From Berkelbacteria bacterium GW2011_GWE1_39_12 (lineage in GTDB: Bacteria; Patescibacteriota; UBA1384; UBA12157), in the NCBI GenBank assembly GCA_001029735.1, contig CP011213.1, positions 591,929 through 655,928 of the forward strand: a DNA stretch of 64,000 bases, in the 5' to 3' direction. The position numbers and the translations under genes are program-made. Under the pieces are notes generated by a model that saw nothing but the letters and a program-made list of their open reading frames with translations, searched no databases and was not told the DNA's origin. This document shows, one piece after another, positions 2,133-62,715 of the stretch (its first letter is position 1; the number at the start of each line of letters is the position of its first letter).

Positions 2133-4134
2133 TTTACCGATTTCAAATTTGTTAGGTGTCGGTCCTAAAATGGCCGAAAAATTAGAAAGGTTGGGGATAG
2201 AAACTATCCGCGATCTTCTTTTTTATTACCCTCGAACTTACGATGATTTTACAAATCCTGTGCCAATCAAAAGTTTAAGAATTGATGACGAAAAAATCAT
2301 TAAAGCCAAGATTATTAAAATAAGCGAGGCCCGAACGAACCGCCGGTGGATGAGCTTAATTAAAGCCAAATTGGCAGACGAAACTGGTGAAATTGAAGCC
2401 GTTTGGTTTAATCAATCCTTTTTATTAAATGTTTTAAAAGAAGGTAGTGAATTTTTGTTTTTAGGCAAAGTGCATTGGGATTTTAAAAATAAGAAGAAGA
2501 ATTTTACTGTTACTAGCTATGAAAAAGAAGCGAAAATACTACCGGTTTACGGTGAAACCGAAGGTTTAACCAGTAAATTTTTGCGTAAATTGATCGAACC
2601 TTTGCTCGAAAAATTTTCTATCGTTGACTATTTGCCTGACGAAATTAAAAAGGAGCAAAGCTTAATTGATTTAGCCAGCGCAGTTAAAAACATTCATTTC
2701 CCAGCTACGAATGATCAGATGCATGCGGCCAGACGGCGCATTGCTTTTGACGAATTGTTTTTCATTGCTTTAAAAATGCAAGAGGCTAAAAAAGAGCTGT
2801 CTGTTTCACGTGCGCCAAAAATAAAATTCGATGAAAATATTTTAAAAAATTTTGTGAATGACTTGCCGTATAAATTAACAAACGCACAAAGAAAAACGGC
2901 ATGGGAAATAGTCCAAGATTTAGAAAATAGTCGGCCGATGAATCGTTTATTGGAAGGCGATGTCGGTTCCGGCAAAACCGTAGTCGCTGCGATGGCGGTA
3001 TTAACTACGGTTAAGGCTGGCTTCCAAGCAGTTTGGTTGGCGCCAACAACGATTTTGGCTAATCAGCATTACCAAAATGTTTCAAAATTATTAAAAGATA
3101 TTAAAGTAGGTATTTGGACGGCCGGCAGTAAACTGGCAGATTTTAAAAACGATGATTTAATTATTGGTACCCACGCCTTGGTGCAAAAAGGTGTAAACTT
3201 TGATCGCTTAGCCTTGATTATTGTCGATGAGCAACATCGTTTTGGTGTAAAACAACGAGCCTTTTTGAAGGAGGGTGCCTTTAAAAAAAATGACACAGTC
3301 CCACACTTTCTTTCGATGACAGCCACGCCGATTCCGAGAACTTTAGCCCTAGCTTTTTATGGTGATTTAGATCTATCGATTATCAATGAAATGCCAGCGG
3401 GCCGCCAAAAAGTCATTACGAAAATTGTGCCTCCAAAAGAACGTAATCAAGCATATGATTTTATTAAAAACCAAGTTGAAGCTGGCCGACAAGTCTTTGT
3501 CATTTGTCCTTTAATCGACGAAAAGGTTTCATCAGATCGTTTATTGGACGTGGATAGAAAATCAGCGGTTAAGGAGTATGAAAAGCTTTCAAAAAAAATA
3601 TTTCCGCAGTTCAAGGTTGGTCTTTTACATGGCAAGATGAAGGTGTCGGAAAAAGACGAGGTGATGCAAAAATTCAAAAACAAAAAGATTGATATTTTAG
3701 TTTCCACAGCCGTAGTCGAAGTTGGCATCGATATTCCCAACGCTACTGTTATGATGATTGAAGATGCGGAGCGTTTCGGTTTAGCTCAACTTCATCAATT
3801 TAGAGGTCGTGTGGGTAGAGGCAAAGATCAGTCATATTGTTTAATTTTCTCCGAGAGCTGGTCGGATTCGACGAAAAAGCGCTTAAAAGCGATGATCACT
3901 TGCGACAATGGTTTTGACCTAGCAGAAATCGATTTGGATTTAAGGGGTCCAGGTGAATTCACGGGATTTTGTCAATCAGGTTTACCGGACTTGAAAATGG
4001 CCTCACTTTCAGATAGAATAATGATAGAAAAGGCCAAGGTGGCAGCAGAGAACGTGGTTAAAAAAGGCATCGAAAATTATCCAAAGCTATTGGAAAAATT
4101 TAAAGAATTTGCTATCACTAAGCATTTGGAATGA
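2122..4134 (+). CDS. recG: ATP-dependent DNA helicase RecG
   Basis: Walker A 'GDVGSGKT', the 'DEQHRFGV' motif, an N-terminal wedge/OB region and the 670 aa length all fit RecG. Confidence 0.85.
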   Translation: MNYDLPISNLLGVGPKMAEKLERLGIETIRDLLFYYPRTYDDFTNPVPIKSLRIDDEKIIKAKIIKISEARTNRRWMSLIKAKLADETGEIEAVWFNQSFLLNVLKEGSEFLFLGKVHWDFKNKKKNFTVTSYEKEAKILPVYGETEGLTSKFLRKLIEPLLEKFSIVDYLPDEIKKEQSLIDLASAVKNIHFPATNDQMHAARRRIAFDELFFIALKMQEAKKELSVSRAPKIKFDENILKNFVNDLPYKLTNAQRKTAWEIVQDLENSRPMNRLLEGDVGSGKTVVAAMAVLTTVKAGFQAVWLAPTTILANQHYQNVSKLLKDIKVGIWTAGSKLADFKNDDLIIGTHALVQKGVNFDRLALIIVDEQHRFGVKQRAFLKEGAFKKNDTVPHFLSMTATPIPRTLALAFYGDLDLSIINEMPAGRQKVITKIVPPKERNQAYDFIKNQVEAGRQVFVICPLIDEKVSSDRLLDVDRKSAVKEYEKLSKKIFPQFKVGLLHGKMKVSEKDEVMQKFKNKKIDILVSTAVVEVGIDIPNATVMMIEDAERFGLAQLHQFRGRVGRGKDQSYCLIFSESWSDSTKKRLKAMITCDNGFDLAEIDLDLRGPGEFTGFCQSGLPDLKMASLSDRIMIEKAKVAAENVVKKGIENYPKLLEKFKEFAITKHLE

Positions 4135-5167: not shown

Positions 5168-5251
5168 GCCCGGGTGGTGAAATGGTATACACGCCAGTTT
5201 TAGGAACTGGTGTCGAAAGACGTGGAGGTTCGAGTCCTCTCCCGGGCACCA
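5168..5251 (+). tRNA. tRNA-Leu (anticodon TAG), class II with long variable arm, CCA encoded
   Basis: Hand-folded. Acceptor GCCCGGG pairs with CCCGGGC; anticodon stem CCAGT/ACTGG; loop TTTAGGA; variable arm GGTGTCGAAAGACGTG; T-arm GGTTCGAGTCC. Confidence 0.85.
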
Positions 5252-5286
5252 ATGCAATAATAATCCAATGATATTTTATGACCGAT

Positions 5287-5329
5287 GGTGTCGAAAGACG
5301 TGGAGCTAGTTGTCTAAAGGCGGGCACCA
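5287..5329 (+). pseudogene. degenerate copy of the tRNA-Leu(TAG) 3' portion (variable arm plus acceptor end, T-arm replaced)
   Basis: A 19-nt exact repeat GGTGTCGAAAGACGTGGAG and the terminal CGGGCACCA recur 36 nt downstream of the intact tRNA. Confidence 0.6.
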
Positions 5330-6276: not shown

Positions 6277-8776
6277 CCTGCTAAAAAAACTAGCAACGAA
6301 TCGAGGTGGATTAACTGATCTTGAAGCGCAAAAACGCTTGCTTGAGAATGGACCAAATTCCATTTCGAGGCAAACTCCCATCCCGTTGCTTAAAATATTT
6401 TTAGATCAATTTCTTGATCTGTTGGTTTTAATGTTAATTTTTGCATGTGTTTTATCTTTTATGCTGGGTGACCTAAGAAATGGTGTTGTCATCGGTTTGA
6501 TTGTTGTCTTAAATGCCATTATAGGATTTGTACAAGAATATAAAGCTGAAAAAATTTTGAAGGCCTTGGTTAAATTATTGCCTGAAAAAGTTAAGGTCAA
6601 GCGTAATGGCGAAGAAAAAGAAATTTCCGCTGAATATTTAGCATTAGGCGATATTGTGGTTATTAATGAAGGCGACAAAATACCGGCCGATATCCGCGTG
6701 ATCGAAAGCTATGAATTGAGAATAAATGAGCAGATATTAACTGGAGAAGTTAATCCGCAAAATAAAGAGGCAAAGGATTATAAGGACGGGAATCTTTTAA
6801 TAACAGAAAGGCTAAATCTTTTATTTGCCGGCACAAATGCGGCTGACGGAGAAGCAATAGGTGTTGTTGTGGCTACTGGCCGCGCAACGGAATTTGGTAA
6901 AATCGCTCAAAAGACGATGCAAATCAATAAAGAGCACTCACCTTTGCAAGAAAAGACTCGTCAAGTCGCAAAAAAAATAGCTATCTTCGCCGCTATTTGG
7001 ATGATTGTTTTAATTTTTTACCATTTTTACTTTGTTAGCTCTAAAATTGTTGACGCTTTAATTTTCGCCGTGGTTGTTGCGGCAGCCTTGGTTCCAGAAG
7101 GGCTACCGGCAACTGTCTCAGTGGCTCTTTCATTCGGTGCTCGTAACTTGGCAAGAAATAAGGCATTGATTAAAAATTTGGTTTCTGTCGAAACATTAGG
7201 TTCAACGACGGTTATTTGTACTGATAAGACTGGGACTTTAACGACTGGTAAAATGACCGTTAGAGAAGTTTGGGAATTTGCCAATCCTGAAATTAATCCT
7301 GCGGAAAAAAAACAACTTATTCGTCAAGTTGCGATTTTATGTAATGACGCTGAGGTTGAGACGGATAATGCCGTTGGGGATCCGACTGAAATCGCTTTGC
7401 TCGAATGGGCTAAAAAGGAAGGCGTTGATGTTGCAGAATATCGAAAAAAATATTTGAAGATTGATGAATTGCCTTTTAATTCAAGACGTCGATTTATGAG
7501 TACAACGTACAATTTAAATGGCAATAAGTTTAATTGCGTTAAGGGTGCGCCAGAAATAATTGCCGAAAAATGCCATCTTAACGATGAAGAAAAATCGCAA
7601 ATAAATAAAAAAATGGAAGAATACGCTTCGGAAGGATATCGTGTTTTAGCTTTAGCCTATAACCATATTTTCTTGGGGTTAGTATCAATTTTTGATCCAC
7701 CAAGACCCGAAGTAAAAGAAGCAATCGAAAATTGCAAAAAGGGCGGTATTAGAGTTATTATGGTCACTGGTGACAATCCCTTAACAGCTGCATCAATTGG
7801 AAAAATAACAGGGATCACATATGACTCTTTTCCAGAAGTGATTGACGGAAAAAGTTTATCGAAAATGTCTGATCTGGAATTACGTCAAAAACTCCACCAT
7901 GTAAATATATTTGCCCGCATTCTACCAGAGCAAAAGTTTCGAATTGTCGATAATTTAATGAGTATGGGCGAAATAGTAGCGGCTACTGGTGATGGTGTAA
8001 ACGACGCTCCAGCTTTAAAAAAGGCTGATATCGGGATCGCGATGGGAATAACGGGGACCGATGTTTCCAAGCAAGCCGCTGATCTGATCTTGTTAGATGA
8101 TAACTTTGCAACTATTGTTAAAGCAGTAGTTGAAGGTAGAGTTATTTTTGATAATGTAAAGAGATTTCTTTTTTACATTTTTACTCATAATTTCGGAGAG
8201 TTAATGATTGTCGCCTTGGGTATCTTTTTCGGATTACCTTTGACTATGTTGCCGGTACAAATTCTAGCAGTCGATCTAGGTACTGATATCTTGCCATCGA
8301 TGTCTTTTATTGCGGAAAAAGAAGAAAATGTAATGTCTTCCAAACCCCGTTCCAAATCAGTTCAGTTGCTAAATTTAGAATCTTTTATACATCTTTCTCT
8401 TTTAGGAACCGTAGTTGGTTTTGGCGCAATCTGGAACTTTACCTCGGTTCTAAATACGACTGGAAATTATGCAGCTGCCACAACTGTTTCACTTAGTACT
8501 TTGGCGGTAGCCCAGGCGTTCAATGCCTTTTTAGCTCGGTGCCCTCATGTTTCAATTTTTAAGTATTCTTTTTGGTCGAATAAATATTTAATTGGTTCTG
8601 TTTTGATTTCATTGATTATATTATTGCTTATAGTTTATACTGAACCATTAAATAACTTTATCTTAACCAGCCCATTTCCTGCGGTATATTGGTTGAGAAT
8701 ATTGCTGGTAGGAATTGTATTTTTAATAGTCGAAGAACTTTATAAATTAATTAAGAAAAAACATGCAAGAGTATAA
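6236..8776 (+). CDS. P-type cation-transporting ATPase (type II, Ca2+/Mg2+-like)
   Basis: Phosphorylation motif 'DKTGTLT', 'TGDGVNDAPALKKADIGIAMG' and 'TGES'-like actuator motifs, with about 10 TM helices. GTG start with a strong upstream RBS GAGGAGGAAA. Confidence 0.85.
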   Translation: MEIPKNPWQGTSDDLLKKLATNRGGLTDLEAQKRLLENGPNSISRQTPIPLLKIFLDQFLDLLVLMLIFACVLSFMLGDLRNGVVIGLIVVLNAIIGFVQEYKAEKILKALVKLLPEKVKVKRNGEEKEISAEYLALGDIVVINEGDKIPADIRVIESYELRINEQILTGEVNPQNKEAKDYKDGNLLITERLNLLFAGTNAADGEAIGVVVATGRATEFGKIAQKTMQINKEHSPLQEKTRQVAKKIAIFAAIWMIVLIFYHFYFVSSKIVDALIFAVVVAAALVPEGLPATVSVALSFGARNLARNKALIKNLVSVETLGSTTVICTDKTGTLTTGKMTVREVWEFANPEINPAEKKQLIRQVAILCNDAEVETDNAVGDPTEIALLEWAKKEGVDVAEYRKKYLKIDELPFNSRRRFMSTTYNLNGNKFNCVKGAPEIIAEKCHLNDEEKSQINKKMEEYASEGYRVLALAYNHIFLGLVSIFDPPRPEVKEAIENCKKGGIRVIMVTGDNPLTAASIGKITGITYDSFPEVIDGKSLSKMSDLELRQKLHHVNIFARILPEQKFRIVDNLMSMGEIVAATGDGVNDAPALKKADIGIAMGITGTDVSKQAADLILLDDNFATIVKAVVEGRVIFDNVKRFLFYIFTHNFGELMIVALGIFFGLPLTMLPVQILAVDLGTDILPSMSFIAEKEENVMSSKPRSKSVQLLNLESFIHLSLLGTVVGFGAIWNFTSVLNTTGNYAAATTVSLSTLAVAQAFNAFLARCPHVSIFKYSFWSNKYLIGSVLISLIILLLIVYTEPLNNFILTSPFPAVYWLRILLVGIVFLIVEELYKLIKKKHARV

Positions 8777-9743
8777 GAATAAATTAAAAAAAGTCATAGC
8801 AATCATTGGCCCTACCGGATCAGGCAAGACATCTTGGGCGAAAGCTTTGGCTAAGAAATTTAATGGCAAGGTTATTTCTGTTGATTCGCGACAAATTTAT
8901 AAAGGCATGGATATTGGTACAGCTAAAGATAAAACTTTTCCGCAGGATCTAATTGATATTGTAAATCCCGACGAATCTTATACCGTATCCGACTATCAAA
9001 AGGCTGCGACAGAGCTAATTAATGGCTATTTGAAGGTTAAAAGCTTGCCGATTTTGGTTGGCGGTACGGGTTTGTATATGGAATCTGTTTTATATGGTTT
9101 TGTTTTACCTGAACTTAAAGAGCAAAGCGAAAAACTTAGAGAAGATTTAGGAAAATTAACCGATGTAGAACTCTATAAAAAATTACAGGAAATTGATTTT
9201 GAAGCTTCAAAAAAAATCGACCCTCGAAACAAGAGACGGGTTATCCGCGCTTTGGAAGTAACTATTCTTTCAGGAAAACCGTTTTCAGCTCAGCAAAAAA
9301 AATTAAAGCCAAAATTCGACAGTCTGATAATCGGTATAAAAACCGATCGCGAGACACTTTATTCCAAGATCGATGCTCGTGTTGATCAGATGATTAAAGA
9401 AGGTTTGGTGGAAGAAGTTCGTAAACTTGCCGATAAATACAGAAAAGACTTGCCGGCATTTAATACTATTGGATACAAAGAAATTTTCGAATATATTTCG
9501 GCAAACGAAATTCCGCGACAATCGCAGCTTGGCCATATTTCGGCTACCGAAATTCCGCGCCAAGATAATCTTGGCTATTTAAGTGGTAAGCAAACACTTA
9601 AAGAAGCAATCGAAAAAATAAAAAATAACACTCATGCCTATGTTCGCAGACAAGATACTTGGTTTAATCGAGATAAAAATATTCATTGGGTCGATGATTT
9701 AAGCCAAGCAGAAAAACTAATTGAGAAGTTTCTAAAAAAATAG
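8763..9743 (+). CDS. miaA: tRNA dimethylallyltransferase
   Basis: P-loop 'GPTGSGKT' and the 'DSRQIYKGMDIGTAK' motif. It contains an in-frame 39-nt tandem duplication at 9496-9573. Confidence 0.85.
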   Translation: MQEYKNKLKKVIAIIGPTGSGKTSWAKALAKKFNGKVISVDSRQIYKGMDIGTAKDKTFPQDLIDIVNPDESYTVSDYQKAATELINGYLKVKSLPILVGGTGLYMESVLYGFVLPELKEQSEKLREDLGKLTDVELYKKLQEIDFEASKKIDPRNKRRVIRALEVTILSGKPFSAQQKKLKPKFDSLIIGIKTDRETLYSKIDARVDQMIKEGLVEEVRKLADKYRKDLPAFNTIGYKEIFEYISANEIPRQSQLGHISATEIPRQDNLGYLSGKQTLKEAIEKIKNNTHAYVRRQDTWFNRDKNIHWVDDLSQAEKLIEKFLKK

Positions 9744-14074: not shown

Positions 14075-14437
14075 TTAATGAATGTTTAAATAATTAAATA
14101 ACCAATTGCCGAAATTCATTAGGATTCCGTATTTTAGGTCTAAATAATACAAAGCAACTATTATTGCTGTCAAAAACAAAACGACAATGGCGGTTTTTTT
14201 AAGATCATATCTAATTTGCGGTAAGTTGAATTCACTATCCGCTAAGGCCGTTGCCGATGTCTTTTGAGTTATGTTCTTATCTACTATGCCATTCCCAACG
14301 GCCACATTTTCTGGTGCAATCTCCTTCGCTTTTTGAGGCGATTGAATTGATTGTATTTGAGCTGACGCTTGAGAGACTTCTTGTAATAATTGCGCTTTAA
14401 TCTGTTTTTTGAATTTTGATTTATCTTTTTTAGACAT
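14075..14437 (-). CDS. hypothetical small membrane protein (Lys-rich N-terminus, C-terminal TM helix)
   Basis: It is the only convincing minus-strand ORF in this neighbourhood. No motif recognised. Confidence 0.35.
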   Translation of the reverse strand: MSKKDKSKFKKQIKAQLLQEVSQASAQIQSIQSPQKAKEIAPENVAVGNGIVDKNITQKTSATALADSEFNLPQIRYDLKKTAIVVLFLTAIIVALYYLDLKYGILMNFGNWLFNYLNIH

Positions 14438-14619
14438 TTATTCACTCCTGTTATGACTTCATTGTACATCAGCATTGTATCTGAAACAATATTATTTTCA
14501 AGAGGCTGAAAGCCTAATTGGAAACAAACTTGATTTATTTCAATAGATTGATTACCATGCGGATTGCCGTCTTGGACGAAACCTTGTTGGAAACAGAATT
14601 ATCTATTAAGAAGTTTATC

Positions 14620-14648
14620 TTTACAAGGTCTATTCTTTTTGCTATCAT
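14620..14648 (+). promoter_or_regulatory. candidate sigma70-type promoter for the tRNA-Gly/tRNA-Cys cluster
   Basis: TTTACA, a 17-nt spacer, then TATCAT, about 10 nt upstream of the first tRNA-like hairpin. Confidence 0.3.
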
Positions 14649-14668
14649 ATAAGGGAACTTCTTAATTA

Positions 14669-14757
14669 GTGAGAGTAGTTCAGCTTATCTGAACTACCTG
14701 CAAAGAATACGCGAGAGTAGTTTCAGCTGTTCCTGAACTATCTCGCAAAAACAATTA
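14669..14757 (+). repeat. two tandem hairpin-forming partial copies of the 5' end of tRNA-Gly(GCC)
   Basis: GTGAGAGTAGTTCAG..CTGAACTAC and GCGAGAGTAGTTTCAG..CTGAACTATCTCGC both share the GCGAGAGTAGTTCA 5' end of the adjacent tRNA. Confidence 0.6.
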
Positions 14758-14832
14758 GCGAGAGTAGTTCATCGGTAGAACGTCTCCTTGCCAAGGAGAA
14801 GGTAGCGGGTTCAATTCCCGTCTCTCGCTCCA
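14758..14832 (+). tRNA. tRNA-Gly (anticodon GCC), CCA encoded
   Basis: Acceptor GCGAGAG pairs with CTCTCGC; D-stem GTTC/GAAC; anticodon stem TCTCC/GGAGA with loop TTGCCAA; T-arm GCGGGTTCAATTCCCGT. Confidence 0.85.
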
Positions 14833-14884
14833 ATGTCTTTCCGGTAATAATAATAACAGGTCAGCGTTATATAAGTTTCAGTAC

Positions 14885-14958
14885 GGCTTGATGACCGAGC
14901 GGCCAGGTAGCGGTCTGCAAAACCGCGCACGCCGGTTCGACTCCGGCTCAAGCCTCCA
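14885..14958 (+). tRNA. tRNA-Cys (anticodon GCA), CCA encoded
   Basis: Acceptor GGCTTGA pairs with TCAAGCC; anticodon stem GCGGT/ACCGC with loop CTGCAAA; T-arm GCCGGTTCGACTCCGGC. Confidence 0.75.
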
Positions 14959-15077
14959 ATAATAAGATTTGTTTTCTAAAAAAAAGAATAAAAAAGCAAA
15001 TCATTAAGATCTGCACAAAACTTCTGGTGAAAAATATAGCAAATTGCAAATTTTCGCAGAAATTTTTGAGGAAAATT

Positions 15078-15299
15078 ATGACAACAACGTTTAATTATAT
15101 ACAAATTGGGATCGCCTTACTTTTATTGGTTAGTATCTTGATGCAGCATCGTGGTACTGGCTTAGGTGGGGCTTTCGGTGGTGAAGGTAATGTTTACAGA
15201 TCTCGTCGTGGCGCTGAGAAGTTTCTTTTCTATGCTACGATCGTTTTGGCCGTCGCTTTTGTTGCTTTGGCTGTTGTCAATATTCTGCTTCAAAAATAA
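15078..15299 (+). CDS. secG: preprotein translocase subunit SecG
   Basis: 'LLLLVSILMQHRGTGLGGAFGG' is the SecG signature. The ATG at 15078 has a GAGGAAAAT RBS; the longer ORF starting at 15027 has none. Confidence 0.75.
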   Translation: MTTTFNYIQIGIALLLLVSILMQHRGTGLGGAFGGEGNVYRSRRGAEKFLFYATIVLAVAFVALAVVNILLQK

Positions 15300-24655: not shown

Positions 24656-24730
24656 GCCTGGGTAGCTCAGTGGTAGAGCACATGACTGAAAATCATGGTG
24701 TCGGCAGTCCGATCCTGCCCCCAGGCACCA
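24656..24730 (+). tRNA. tRNA-Phe (anticodon GAA), CCA encoded
   Basis: Acceptor GCCTGGG pairs with CCCAGGC; D-arm AGCTCAGTGGTAGAGC; anticodon stem CATGA/TCATG with loop CTGAAAA; T-arm GGCAGTCCGATCCTGCC. Confidence 0.85.
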
Positions 24731-24793
24731 GTTTCTTATGAGTAGCAATAGATGATTTTCGTTGGCTGGTTGAATTTGGTCTGTCTTTCGACA

Positions 24794-24835
24794 GACCCTG
24801 CCCGCGTGCTGCTGCAGGCACCAGTTTCTATCTTG
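24794..24835 (+). pseudogene. degenerate copy of the tRNA-Phe 3' end plus 6 nt of its 3' flank
   Basis: CCCTGCCCGCGTGCTGCTGCAGGCACCAGTTTCT matches CCTGCCCCCAGGCACCAGTTTCT at the tRNA 3' end. It is preceded by a perfect 8-bp hairpin at 24778-24797. Confidence 0.55.
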
Positions 24836-24939
24836 TACCGCGTTCAGATAAATATTAATTACTGACGAGATTTTTTGCATAGCAAAGATTACCCAACGCG
24901 GAAAGAAAAATATAGCCAAGCTTTCCTTGTCGCGAAAAT

Positions 24940-25395
24940 TTGCGAACAATTATGAAAACATTTTCCAACATTGCTATGGGCAAACTATTTCGTCCAGATT
25001 ACATCTTTTCGGCCACACCGCCGGCAAATGGTTTGTATATTTATCTGCTGATTGTTTTTGGTTTGATGATTGTAATTGCAATTTTGCTGGCGTTTTTCAA
25101 ATCAAAGTTAGAAAAAATATATCTAAAACTGCAAAACAGAATCTTTAATCTACTGCTGACACTTGGAATTATTGGTTTATTCTTTGTACTTTTCCGCTAT
25201 GAACAAATTCCATATTTCGGCAGTCGACTAATGATCCTGCTTCTACTTTTAACTTTTCTTTTTTGGGGCGGCTGGATCGCATTTTATTGGATCTTTGAAA
25301 TCCCGCAAGAAAAATTAGAAGCACGTAAGAAGCAAAAATTTATCAAATATTTGCCGCAAGCCGCGAAGCGGAAAATTCGCGGGTCAACCCGGTAA
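24940..25395 (+). CDS. hypothetical membrane protein (3-4 TM helices)
   Basis: Hydrophobic translation. The real start may be the second ATG, at about 24952. Confidence 0.4.
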   Translation: MRTIMKTFSNIAMGKLFRPDYIFSATPPANGLYIYLLIVFGLMIVIAILLAFFKSKLEKIYLKLQNRIFNLLLTLGIIGLFFVLFRYEQIPYFGSRLMILLLLLTFLFWGGWIAFYWIFEIPQEKLEARKKQKFIKYLPQAAKRKIRGSTR

Positions 25396-61979: not shown

Positions 61980-62082
61980 CTAAAGGCGACCGGATTCATT
62001 TCGGAAAAGCAGAGGCGGTATTGGCCGAAGGCCACCAAATACGAAAAAACACTACCTTAAGTAGTGAATTTCCAAATGGCGG
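61980..62082 (+). repeat. direct repeat copy 2, overlapping the last 6 nt of tRNA-Asp
   Basis: CTAAAGGCGACCGGATTCATTTCGGAAAAGCAGAGGCGGTATTGGCCGAAGG...GAATTTCCAAATGGCGG. Confidence 0.8.
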
Positions 62083-62154
62083 GCTCGACCGGATTCGAAC
62101 CGGCGATCTCCTCCGTGACAGGGAGGCGCTTTGAACCGGCTAAGCTACGAGCCC
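62077..62154 (-). tRNA. tRNA-Asp (anticodon GTC), CCA encoded
   Basis: Reverse complement reads GGGCTCG-TA-GCTT..AAGC-G-CCTCC-CTGTCAC-GGAGG-AGATC-GCCGGTTCGAATCCGGT-CGAGCCC-G-CCA. Confidence 0.8.
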
Positions 62155-62185: not shown

Positions 62186-62272
62186 CGGGCTCTTGTTCTT
62201 TGCTGGTTCAAAGCAAGCTTTGAAACCGGTAGATCCTTCGGAATTCGTCAAAACCGAAAAAGCTACGAGCCC
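62186..62272 (-). pseudogene. degenerate tRNA-Asp-like copy adjacent to, and upstream in tRNA sense of, the intact tRNA-Asp
   Basis: It shares CGGGCTC, CTTTGAA(A)CCGG and AAGCTACGAGCCC with the tRNA, but the middle is replaced and expanded. Confidence 0.5.
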
Positions 62273-62373: not shown

Positions 62374-62453
62374 GCGGGTATGGTTTAGTTCAGAACGTGA
62401 CCTTCCCAAATTTTGCGCAGGTATAGTTTAGTGGCAAAATGCGTCCTTCCCGG
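62374..62453 (+). pseudogene. two tandem degenerate 5' halves of tRNA-Gly(CCC) (acceptor-D arm-anticodon loop TTCCCAA/TTCCCGG)
   Basis: GCGGGTATGGTTTAGTTCAGAACGTGACCTTCCCAAA and GCGCAGGTATAGTTTAGTGGCAAAATGCGTCCTTCCCGGA. Compare the tRNA 5' half GCGGGATTAGTATAGTGGTAATATGTATCCTTCCCAAGG. Confidence 0.6.
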
Positions 62454-62463
62454 ATTTATTGGA

Positions 62464-62537
62464 GCGGGATTAGTATAGTGGTAATATGTATCCTTCCCAA
62501 GGATAAGATGCCAGTTCGATTCTGGTATCCCGCTCCA
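62464..62537 (+). tRNA. tRNA-Gly (anticodon CCC), CCA encoded
   Basis: Acceptor GCGGGAT pairs with ATCCCGC; anticodon stem TATCC/GGATA with loop TTCCCAA; T-arm GCCAGTTCGATTCTGGT. Confidence 0.8.
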
Positions 62538-62588
62538 ATAAATCTGCATGTAGGATGGTATGGCTTACCTGCTCCAGTAAAAATTTTC

Positions 62589-62663
62589 GCCCGGATAGCT
62601 CAGTGGTAGAGCAGTTCCTTCGTAAGGAAAAGGTCGGAGGTTCAAATCCTCTTCCGGGCTCCA
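62589..62663 (+). tRNA. tRNA-Thr (anticodon CGT), CCA encoded
   Basis: Acceptor GCCCGGA pairs with TCCGGGC; D-arm GCTCAGTGGTAGAGC; anticodon loop TTCGTAA; T-arm GGAGGTTCAAATCCTCT. Confidence 0.8.
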
Positions 62664-62681
62664 GCGAAAATTTAAAAGAAG

Positions 62682-62715
62682 AGGTCGGCAGTTCAAATCT
62701 GCCCATCGGCTCCCA
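62682..62715 (+). pseudogene. degenerate copy of the tRNA-Thr 3' portion (variable region, T-arm, acceptor)
   Basis: AGGTCGGCAGTTCAAATCTGCCCATCGGCTCCCA matches AGGTCGGAGGTTCAAATCCTCTTCCGGGCTCCA at the tRNA 3' end. Confidence 0.55.

Follow-up and report, generated by a model that had tools for sequence, protein, structure and literature searches.

In Escherichia coli, the tyrT-tyrV locus (rttR/tpr region) carries tandem units made up of a terminal piece of the tRNA and transcribed spacer, which lie beside the intact gene and are co-transcribed with it. As checked here, these units follow each other at a spacing of 178 nucleotides (nt) in about three copies, and the one abutting tyrV overlaps its last 19 nt; every unit bears the final 19 nt of tRNA-Tyr. 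By analogy, this locus is the nearest precedent for the two tandem hairpin elements studied here, which are situated in the leader of the tRNA-Gly(GCC) gene in a 64-kb stretch (the window) of a groundwater (Rifle) Berkelbacteria genome (Candidate Phyla Radiation, CPR/Patescibacteria), and it shows that repeats of tRNA ends can persist next to a working gene. The two cases differ in that the E. coli repeats concern the 3' end, lie downstream, measure 178 bp, bear an annotated small RNA (rttR) and a small open reading frame (tpr) and have no sequence relationship to the window, whereas here the 5' end is repeated upstream, in the leader, as hairpin units of 42-47 nt. In animal mitochondrial genomes, pseudo-tRNAs derived from tandem duplication and random loss decay beside the retained functional copy. 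These are, however, whole-gene duplicates in an organelle, while the window units comprise only the first 15-30 nt of the gene and reside in a presumably transcribed leader on a bacterial chromosome. Quasi-palindrome or template-switch mutagenesis and slipped-strand duplication generate head-to-tail copies bounded by microhomology and perfect or extend imperfect inverted repeats. They are mechanisms and not a family of elements, and their action at the window locus (on the D arm and a GAGA/TCTC pairing) is deduced from the end product only. Fragments of tRNA genes in the form of attachment (att) repeats also adjoin functional genes and can be mistaken for or confused with tRNA features (bioRxiv 10.1101/2022.07.05.498093; 10.1101/2020.12.28.424599). 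Such fragments normally represent the 3' part of the gene, are separated by kilobases of element DNA and are accompanied by an integrase, whereas the window features 5' parts in tandem, tens of nt apart and without any element.

The explanation that we favor, with a probability of about 0.58, is that both elements derive from the 5' third of tRNA-Gly(GCC) and are truncated pseudo-copies of it, joined to a few leader bases, which arose by DNA-level tandem duplication across the boundary between leader and gene, subsequently diverged and are tolerated as by-products with a fast turnover. A dedicated function is not required for the units. The functional gene with its encoded CCA (14758-14832, plus strand; identified by ARAGORN and Rfam, 68.6 bits) starts with GCGAGAGTAGTTCATCGG and constitutes the third, complete member of the repeat. 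Ahead of it, Tandem Repeats Finder reported a repeat at 14664-14757 (period 47, 2.4 copies, 78% matches), the score of which (120) is the highest of the 40 tandem-repeat rows in the 64 kb. Unit 1 (14664-14705, plus strand) consists of AATTA-GTGAGAGTAGTTCAG, the loop CTTAT, the 3' arm CTGAACTAC and the tail CTGCAAAG, with a hairpin core at 14675-14697. Unit 2 (14706-14757, plus strand) reads AATAC-GCGAGAGTAGTTTCAG, loop CTGTTC, 3' arm CTGAACTATCTCGC and AAAAACAATTA, the latter being at the same time the immediate leader of the real tRNA-Gly (AAAAAC and then AATTA). The original prediction, which had located two elements between a promoter at 14620-14648 and the tRNA gene, proved correct in coordinates and sequences. 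It had each element begin with the first 12-14 nt of the tRNA, and this agrees with what we found: copy 1 (GTGAGAGTAGTTCAG, 14669-14683) corresponds to tRNA nt 1-15 with a C2>T exchange (13 of the first 14 nt match), and copy 2 (GCGAGAGTAGTTTCAG, 14711-14726) has 12 exact nt followed by a 1-nt insertion (T) relative to tRNA nt 1-15. The spacing of about 45 nt given there corresponds to start-to-start distances of 42 and 47 nt between units and gene. Of the hairpins of 9-16 bp that it described, the one in copy 1 is a perfect 9-bp structure (arms 14675-14683 and 14689-14697), whereas copy 2 (14711-14746) forms 14 bp with two bulges and not a clean 16-bp helix.

The repeat finder revealed three in-register copies of a 19-mer with a leader pentamer and G[C/T]GAGAGTAGTT, so that the 5 nt before each G+1 (AATTA, AATAC and AATTA) are included. 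Since the leader pentamer lies inside the repeat, the array is a DNA tandem repeat of leader and gene start and not only a mimic of the mature tRNA. In each unit, 5 nt of leader and tRNA nt 1-16 precede an altered D-loop and a 3' arm (CTGAAC..TCTCGC) that folds back onto the 5' side, and these 3' arms (CTGAAC-TA-TCTCGC) align with the 3' strand of the tRNA's D-stem and nt 26-30 (GAAC-G-TCTCC, GAACGTCTC). The units are diverged copies, each covering roughly nt 1-30 of the gene and the final 5 nt of its leader. By chance, a 12-mer with at most one mismatch is expected about 5e-4 times per 250 nt; two are present. The head-to-tail arrangement in a single orientation, with gene- and flank-derived bases shared by the units, is that of a tandem duplication or minisatellite (resembling variable number tandem repeats, VNTR). 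Between unit 1 and unit 2, the inserted T is uncompensated, the C opposite G7 is lost and the outer stem is degraded; such uncompensated bulges and mismatches point to drift and not to covariation. Six independent assemblies, made with different pipelines, agree to 100% in the sequence of the locus, which leads us to reject an assembly artefact, and the array is fixed at two units in the window's own population.

Comparison with orthologous loci, for which ComM identity to the window served as gauge of relatedness, did not reveal a conserved device. In L093 (78%) the tRNA directly follows the promoter and no copy is present, and copies are likewise missing from L121 (82%) and from L001 and L002 (65%). 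In L088 and L119 (both 84%) one 15-nt copy abuts the gene (tGAGAGTAGTTtat and GCGAGAGTAGTTTCC, respectively); it has the GTAGTTT variant in common with unit 2 and forms no hairpin. The hairpins are therefore absent from all six of these loci and specific to the window lineage. On the basis of these alignments the hairpins are not conserved among relatives. Orthologous loci without the elements, and no covariation in the hairpins, had been named in the original prediction as one of the outcomes that would refute it, and for a structured leader the part on orthologs applies.

The same tRNA-Gly allele was followed across CPR genomes by an unbiased metagenome scan, the probe of which, tRNA nt 1-27, is not matched by the truncated copies. 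The 25 stretches returned and other loci add up to 29 distinct loci (the window, L088 and L093-L121); the first 27 nt are exact in the other 28 and the rest of the gene is near-identical. An exact GAGAGTAGTT is found within 250 nt upstream on the same strand in 9 of the 29 loci, and in 10 if one mismatch is allowed, as compared to a chance expectation of about 0.007 loci, while none occurs downstream and none as reverse complement in the 29 loci. Copy number varies between 0, 1, 2 and at least 3 and unit length between 15, 16, 36, 42-47, 52, 56, 59 and 79 nt. The range extends from an exact 16-nt duplication of the gene start in L102 to arrays of 2 x 36 nt in L096, where antisense pieces of the 5' copy (ACTCTC, TGAAC) are also present, 2 x 56 nt in L106 and at least 3 x 52 nt in L118, with single copies followed by unrelated hairpins in L094 and L103. 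L113, without any copy, and L118, with at least three, are 96.4% identical over the 448 nt that they share downstream, which indicates fast turnover and, as in VNTRs, a copy number and unit length that vary among close relatives. Units from L106, L118, L094 and L091 are not more stable than shuffled sequences (z above -1), so the common denominator is the copy of the 5' end and not a stable hairpin. Replication slippage, one of the options offered by the original prediction, is the one preferred here in view of the head-to-tail units with leader bases, the simple tandem duplications of 16 nt (L102) and 15 nt (L088, L119) and the finding that even contigs with 96% downstream identity disagree in the number and length of their units. 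Copies that come and go this quickly among relatives argue for duplication scars rather than a conserved regulatory device.

Two further observations concern the allele itself and the contigs that carry it. The tRNA-Gly(GCC) sequence (about 72 nt) is identical or near-identical in at least 29 loci with differing gene contexts and promoters, and L107 has the same tRNA body with a CCC anticodon; this uniformity could stem from extreme conservation or from horizontal spread. Contigs L083 (at its start) as well as L116, L118 and L107 (at their ends) break at or inside the 5' repeat region of tRNA-Gly, and short-read assemblies are probably broken by the arrays.

With regard to folding, structure prediction, which had been suggested as a check, yielded -13.1 kcal/mol (z -3.5 versus shuffles) for the hairpin of unit 1 and -14.6 kcal/mol (z -3.8) for that of unit 2 (-16.3 kcal/mol and z -4.9 with its tail), so that both are more stable than shuffled controls; the fold of the whole leader has a z of -4.7. 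Perfect 9-bp hairpins with small loops occur only three times in the 64 kb. Because the promoter, which is conserved in relatives, lies upstream of the whole array, the array is predicted to constitute a transcribed 5' leader. After hairpin 1 the sequence continues with CTGCAAAG and after hairpin 2 with AAAAAC, and no terminator-like U tract was found on the plus strand of 14400-15100; the locus does not have the makeup of an intrinsic terminator or attenuator, though an alternative pairing exists. A scan of the same region with Rfam 15 detected no cis-regulatory family (T-box, riboswitch, leader) at gathering score, and even at E<=10 only the two real tRNAs were reported, the best non-tRNA matches (E >=0.2) overlapping the tRNA itself. 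Nor do the units qualify as tRNA genes or pseudogenes, as the covariance model RF00005 did not match them, ARAGORN found nothing in unit 2 and they cover only about nt 1-30.

The 5' third of the allele may itself predispose the locus to duplication. When nt 1-31 of the tRNA are folded alone, GAGA/TCTC (the 5' strand of the acceptor with the 5' strand of the anticodon stem) and the D stem (GTTC/GAAC) pair at -6 kcal/mol, which makes the fold-back an intrinsic property of this part of the allele. Relics in L106, L118, L091, L094 and L096 end at tRNA nt 24-35, most relics at nt 24-30, where the intrinsic hairpin ends. Through this hairpin (nt 3-30, GAGA/TCTC and D stem) the allele would be prone to duplication, with nascent-strand slippage or template switching favored, and a first copy could have been generated by either process at the hairpin-prone 5' third of a highly transcribed gene; the 15-16-nt forms look like the simplest products. 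In the window lineage, templated (quasi-palindrome type) or ordinary mutations would have lengthened the intrinsic hairpin to 9-14 bp, and unequal exchange would then have duplicated the hairpin unit. Transcribed as a 5' leader of about 100 nt, the units would fold co-transcriptionally into two local hairpins, which form first and could keep the pseudo-5' strands from competing for the 3' acceptor strand of the tRNA, before cleavage by RNase P in front of G14758 would discard them together with the leader. Local sequestration may matter, but arrays without hairpins are tolerated elsewhere. In genomes as small as these, the tRNA-Gly gene presumably exists once and is essential. Duplications spanning the 5' boundary would survive because the downstream copy stays intact, while a duplication within the gene would destroy it.

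Several findings weigh against mere tolerance of duplication scars. The window hairpins have 4-5 bp more than the natural stems of the tRNA, and the D-loop is changed. No relic has lost any of the 10-nt core GAGAGTAGTT, not even in three Berkelbacteria lineages at 16% ComM divergence, whereas the D-loop is altered in every relic that reaches nt 25-30, a combination not obviously expected of neutral decay. The occurrence in about one third of the loci, in at least five differently built versions, could reflect recurrent selection and not only a hot spot. Fold-back structures also recur in the window: upstream of tRNA-Asp (62077-62154, minus strand), a relic of about 86 nt (62187-62272, minus strand) comprises the first 13 nt of that tRNA, a D-arm piece with its inverted copy (CCGGTTTCAAAGC/GCTTTGAACCAGC) and the end GAGCCCG and forms a long hairpin (z -2.7). 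Finally, the minimum-energy structure of the full transcript (-60 kcal/mol) pairs the 3' arm of unit 2 with the 5' strand of the real tRNA, and the two hairpins plus cloverleaf, at a sum of about -56 kcal/mol, are only some 4 kcal/mol away, which makes a switch conceivable.

Several of these points also support a functional structured leader, in which the hairpins would be selected as anti-misfolding clamps, as entry or decoy sites for RNase P or RNase E, for protection of the 5' end or as a switch. In the latter version, the 3' arm of unit 2, being antisense to tRNA nt 1-14, would alternate between two partners, the 5' arm of its own unit and the real tRNA's 5' strand, and thereby set the yield of mature tRNA-Gly and tRNA-Cys. 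The significant stability of the hairpins, the alternative pairing within about 4 kcal/mol of the native arrangement, the recurrence of 5' copies in 9 of 29 loci with intact core and always altered D-loop and the antisense pieces in L096 together with the analogous fold-back upstream of tRNA-Asp are all in line with it. The leader, however, matches no Rfam family and has no U tract on the plus strand, its hairpins are absent from orthologous loci at 65-84% ComM identity, its two units differ by uncompensated bulges, the units in L106, L118, L094 and L091 are no more stable than shuffles, and copy number changes from none to at least three between contigs 96% identical downstream. Of the structured leader or attenuator proposed in the original prediction, the hairpins as such and their stability relative to shuffles stand; a regulatory role for them is, in our estimation, unlikely.

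Apart from slippage, the units might be remains of older tRNA-Gly genes that were truncated or internally deleted when a new copy was placed beside or inside them. The new copy could have come from incoming DNA through homology-facilitated illegitimate recombination, or else as an inserted tRNA "cassette". An indication in this direction comes from L091 (82% ComM identity), where the locus is inverted and 4 nt separate an old-type 5' relic (GCGAGAGTAGTTC...TAGAACGTC) from the tRNA-Gly downstream of it, the acceptor stem of which is different. Unit 2 contains both acceptor strands (GCGAGA..TCTCGC), and by inspection a very similar mini-gene of 37 nt would result if the tRNA lost the stretch between its two CGTCTC repeats (nt 25-30 and 61-66). 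Genes nested in disrupted genes of the same isotype, which are described below, together with L091 indicate that replacement does operate at other tRNA loci of these genomes. On the other hand, the copies share the allele and the leader pentamer of the live gene, the plain 15-16-nt tandem duplications in relatives cannot be whole-gene relics, and no inverted-repeat flanks surround the gene. A 3' relic of an older tRNA-Gly in the 52-nt spacer between tRNA-Gly and tRNA-Cys was considered and rejected, as the alignment is no better than with shuffles (p 0.56 local, 0.095 global). For the tRNA-Gly(GCC) units we therefore regard gene replacement as improbable.

At other tRNA genes, relics were surveyed among 102-113 non-redundant tRNAs in the collected CPR loci with a Smith-Waterman score of at least 24. 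Upstream same-strand copies correspond to 5' parts of the gene (15 cases) and downstream copies to 3' parts (5 cases), as compared to 1 and 0 in reverse-complement controls. This polarity is the one predicted by survivorship of boundary-spanning duplications. In the window, tRNA-Gly(CCC) (62464-62537, plus strand; region 62374-62576) appears nested, and its whole region folds with a z of -4.1. Its leader ATTTATTGGA (62454-62463) is perfectly complementary to TCCAATAAAT (62534-62543), resulting in a 10-bp helix of leader and CCA-trailer; upstream, there are two diverged 5' halves that reach the anticodon loop (62374-62410 and 62415-62454), and on the downstream side CTTACCTGCTCCA (62564-62576) is a match to the acceptor strand of the second of these halves. 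An older tRNA-Gly(CCC) thus appears to surround the gene, its 5' half on one side and its 3' end on the other, and the 5' half farther upstream would be older still. The tRNA-Gly(GCC) gene does not show this nested arrangement, having a leader/trailer helix of at most 5 bp and no 3' relic. Complementarity of leader and trailer is not a general property of tRNA genes, an idea that was rejected because most have at most 5 bp, near the shuffled mean of 4.1; it marks only nested genes.

Nested genes are also found in relatives. In L112 (2132-2315), L117 (1864-2047) and L091 (about 7900-8090), each time on the minus strand, a tRNA-Cys gene is interrupted between nt 34 and 35 by a second, complete tRNA-Cys that GC-rich inverted repeats (CCTGCCCGCC...GGCAGGCGGG) flank; the insert measures about 110 nt and has imperfect inverted-repeat ends CCTGCCCGCCATGGC...GCGATGGCAGGCGGG. 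When the outer halves are joined, ARAGORN calls an intact tRNA-Cys in all three lineages, and in L093 the outer-type tRNA-Cys gene is uninterrupted. For tRNA-Phe, L118 (about 2850-3100, minus strand) has one allele in the anticodon loop of a window-type allele with AT-rich complementary flanks, the outer copy carrying small palindromic inserts in its D and T loops, and L101 (about 3700-4100, minus strand) a window-type gene within another allele that is itself within a window-type gene, with perfectly complementary 9-nt flanks (ccaacaaat/atttgttgg). In L093, a tRNA-Leu is nested in a disrupted gene of the same isotype. The intron mode of ARAGORN was useful only for the tRNA-Cys of L117 and the tRNA-Leu of L093 and otherwise returned mostly chimeric calls of neighboring tRNAs. 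Group I introns at position 35/36 have been described for Patescibacteria tRNAs (bioRxiv 10.1101/2025.07.03.662931). Like these and like split or intron-containing archaeal tRNAs, the nested tRNA-Cys is a case of a CPR tRNA interrupted in the anticodon loop (34/35) with GC-rich complementary ends. It differs in that the insert of about 110 nt holds a complete tRNA gene and no group I ribozyme, and bulge-helix-bulge geometry was not seen in it; the comparison does not apply to the tRNA-Gly(GCC) units.

The GC-rich inverted-repeat motif or close variants of it also flank tRNA-Leu(CAG) and tRNA-Val genes (L093 9788-9873, L091 13248-13321, L118 3343-3416), in opposite orientation in L118, and an "empty" version without tRNA in the loop resides in a relic D-loop of L099, upstream of 234-305. 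The motif is about eightfold enriched within 150 nt of tRNAs, with 14 of 56 matches in 3% of the bases. A process of wider scope may be considered on these grounds, of which the leader hairpins would be one footprint. In Berkelbacteria-like CPR, tRNA genes would suffer repeated breaks in the D or anticodon loop, with a new copy coming to the rescue, be it a duplicate that spans the gene boundary or a small inverted-repeat-flanked "tRNA cassette" inserted into the old gene, and arrays of 5' relics, 3' relics and nested genes would be left behind. Such an undescribed tRNA-gene-targeting process would be driven by a specific agent, for instance the GC-rich hairpin element CCTGCCCGCC...GGCAGGCGGG or a recombinase or homing-type nuclease with tRNA-shaped DNA as its substrate, and the relics would perhaps be kept as processing scaffolds or decoys. 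We put this forward tentatively and as a doubtful possibility. In the open-access literature we came across no account of leaders with repeated tRNA 5' ends, nor of CPR tRNA genes nested in one another, which is not proof of novelty.

Remnants of repeated integration, a further option of the original prediction, would make the units att-site scars of lost integrative elements with tyrosine-recombinase att repeats. Integrases that target tRNA genes classically leave partial tRNA copies behind (bioRxiv 10.1101/2022.07.05.498093; 10.1101/2020.12.28.424599), and relics of 3' parts do occur downstream of tRNA-Leu(TAG), tRNA-Phe and tRNA-Thr in the window genome. Downstream of tRNA-Leu(TAG) (5168-5251, plus strand), an exact 20-nt copy of the variable arm (5286-5305) comes first, then ctagttgtCTAAAGGC and then GGGCACCA (5322-5329), which repeats the 3' end. 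The motif CTAAAGGC/GCCTTTAG is also found as a small insert in relic D or T loops of L100 and L118. The tRNA-Phe gene (24656-24730, plus strand) is followed at 24778-24829 by the hairpin GGTCTGTC-TTTC-GACAGACC, then by CCTGCCCGCG, which equals the GC-rich flank motif with one mismatch, and by a second copy of 3' end and trailer, CAGGCACCAGTTTCT (24815-24829). For tRNA-Thr (62589-62663, plus strand; region 62580-62715), leader and trailer are complementary over 8 bp (AAATTTTC/GAAAATTT), and 62682-62715 on its 3' side represents the 3' part of a different tRNA allele (AGGTCGGCAGTTCAAATCTGCCCATCGGCTCCCA) with the T stem changed on both strands. The tRNA-Gly(GCC) units, by contrast, are copies of the 5' end (nt 1-16, up to about 30) and not of the recombined 3' part, they are 42-47 nt apart without cargo, no 3' relic is present, the flanking genes are housekeeping genes without an integrase, and identical multi-copy arrays as in L096, L106 and L118 are not expected of serial integration. 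Neither the tRNA-Gly 27-mer nor the nested-cassette flank has an exact match in viral contigs, and a phage origin of the tRNA allele or of that flank was rejected for this reason. Taken as an account of the two units, integration is very unlikely.

Still less can be said for palindromes bound as DNA by a protein, be it a dimeric regulator at an operator or a Y1 transposase (RAYT, i.e., REP-associated tyrosine transposase, or IS200-type) at hairpins like repetitive extragenic palindromic (REP) elements. Unit 1 is indeed a perfect 9-N5-9 palindrome that starts with GTAG, and a perfect 11-bp inverted repeat brackets the promoter (repeat finder; arms ATTAAGAAGTT at 14605-14615 and AACTTCTTAAT at 14656-14666), where about 0.02 are expected by chance in the region. 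Its right arm is the start of the leader, and by inspection it was not seen in L088 and L093. A Y1_Tnp gene (IS200/IS605-type, PF01797; 920-1591) immediately upstream of ComM in L119 could also be cited; none was seen at that place in the window. Against this, the sites are downstream of the promoter, orthologous loci lack the palindrome, GTAG is nothing more than nt 7-10 of the tRNA, and beyond this site the 64 kb contain the arms just one more time, by chance (GTAGTTCAG once and CTGAACTA three times, two of them here), unlike REP elements or bacterial interspersed mosaic elements. Such a role for the units is hardly credible.

With respect to the genomic setting, the promoter upstream of the array is of the sigma-70 type (14620-14648, plus strand; TTTACA, a 17-nt spacer and TATCAT with an upstream TG; 10 of 12 matches). 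As judged by these boxes, it is predicted to drive the tRNA-Gly/tRNA-Cys transcript, and the block TTTACAAG...TATCAT is present at the orthologous position in L088, L093, L119 and L121. The tRNA-Cys(GCA) gene (14885-14958, plus strand; ARAGORN and Rfam) is probably co-transcribed with tRNA-Gly(GCC); the spacer between them comprises 52 nt in the window vs. 1 nt in L088 and L093. Neighbors of the locus are ComM, an open reading frame of 120 amino acids, SecG, an SBP_bac_5 protein and purine genes, and the order of ComM, the small minus-strand open reading frame, promoter, tRNA-Gly, tRNA-Cys, SecG and SBP is kept in relatives. The second-best tandem repeat of the window is intergenic (9493-9575; two copies of a 42-nt unit, score 110). 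An inverted, diverged copy of its unit was noticed by eye at about 24913-24950, upstream of an open reading frame starting near 24953, and the unit may be a shared operator or promoter motif.

Since the hairpins upstream of tRNA-Gly(GCC) are most likely tolerated duplication scars, annotation as tRNA genes or as a regulatory leader would be inappropriate. Arrays of this kind can confuse counts of tRNA genes in CPR, and metagenome assemblies break at them (L083, L116, L118). In a wider pattern, about one third of the CPR loci with this allele carry hypervariable 5'-end arrays in a presumably transcribed leader, and several other tRNAs are nested in older, disrupted copies of themselves. The arrays offer a natural test of the load of pseudo-acceptor strands that a pre-tRNA tolerates before processing by RNase P fails. 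If the 5' end of the gene is a hot spot, they would show how presumably single-copy essential genes withstand local rearrangement in streamlined genomes, where only "self-rescuing" events are seen.

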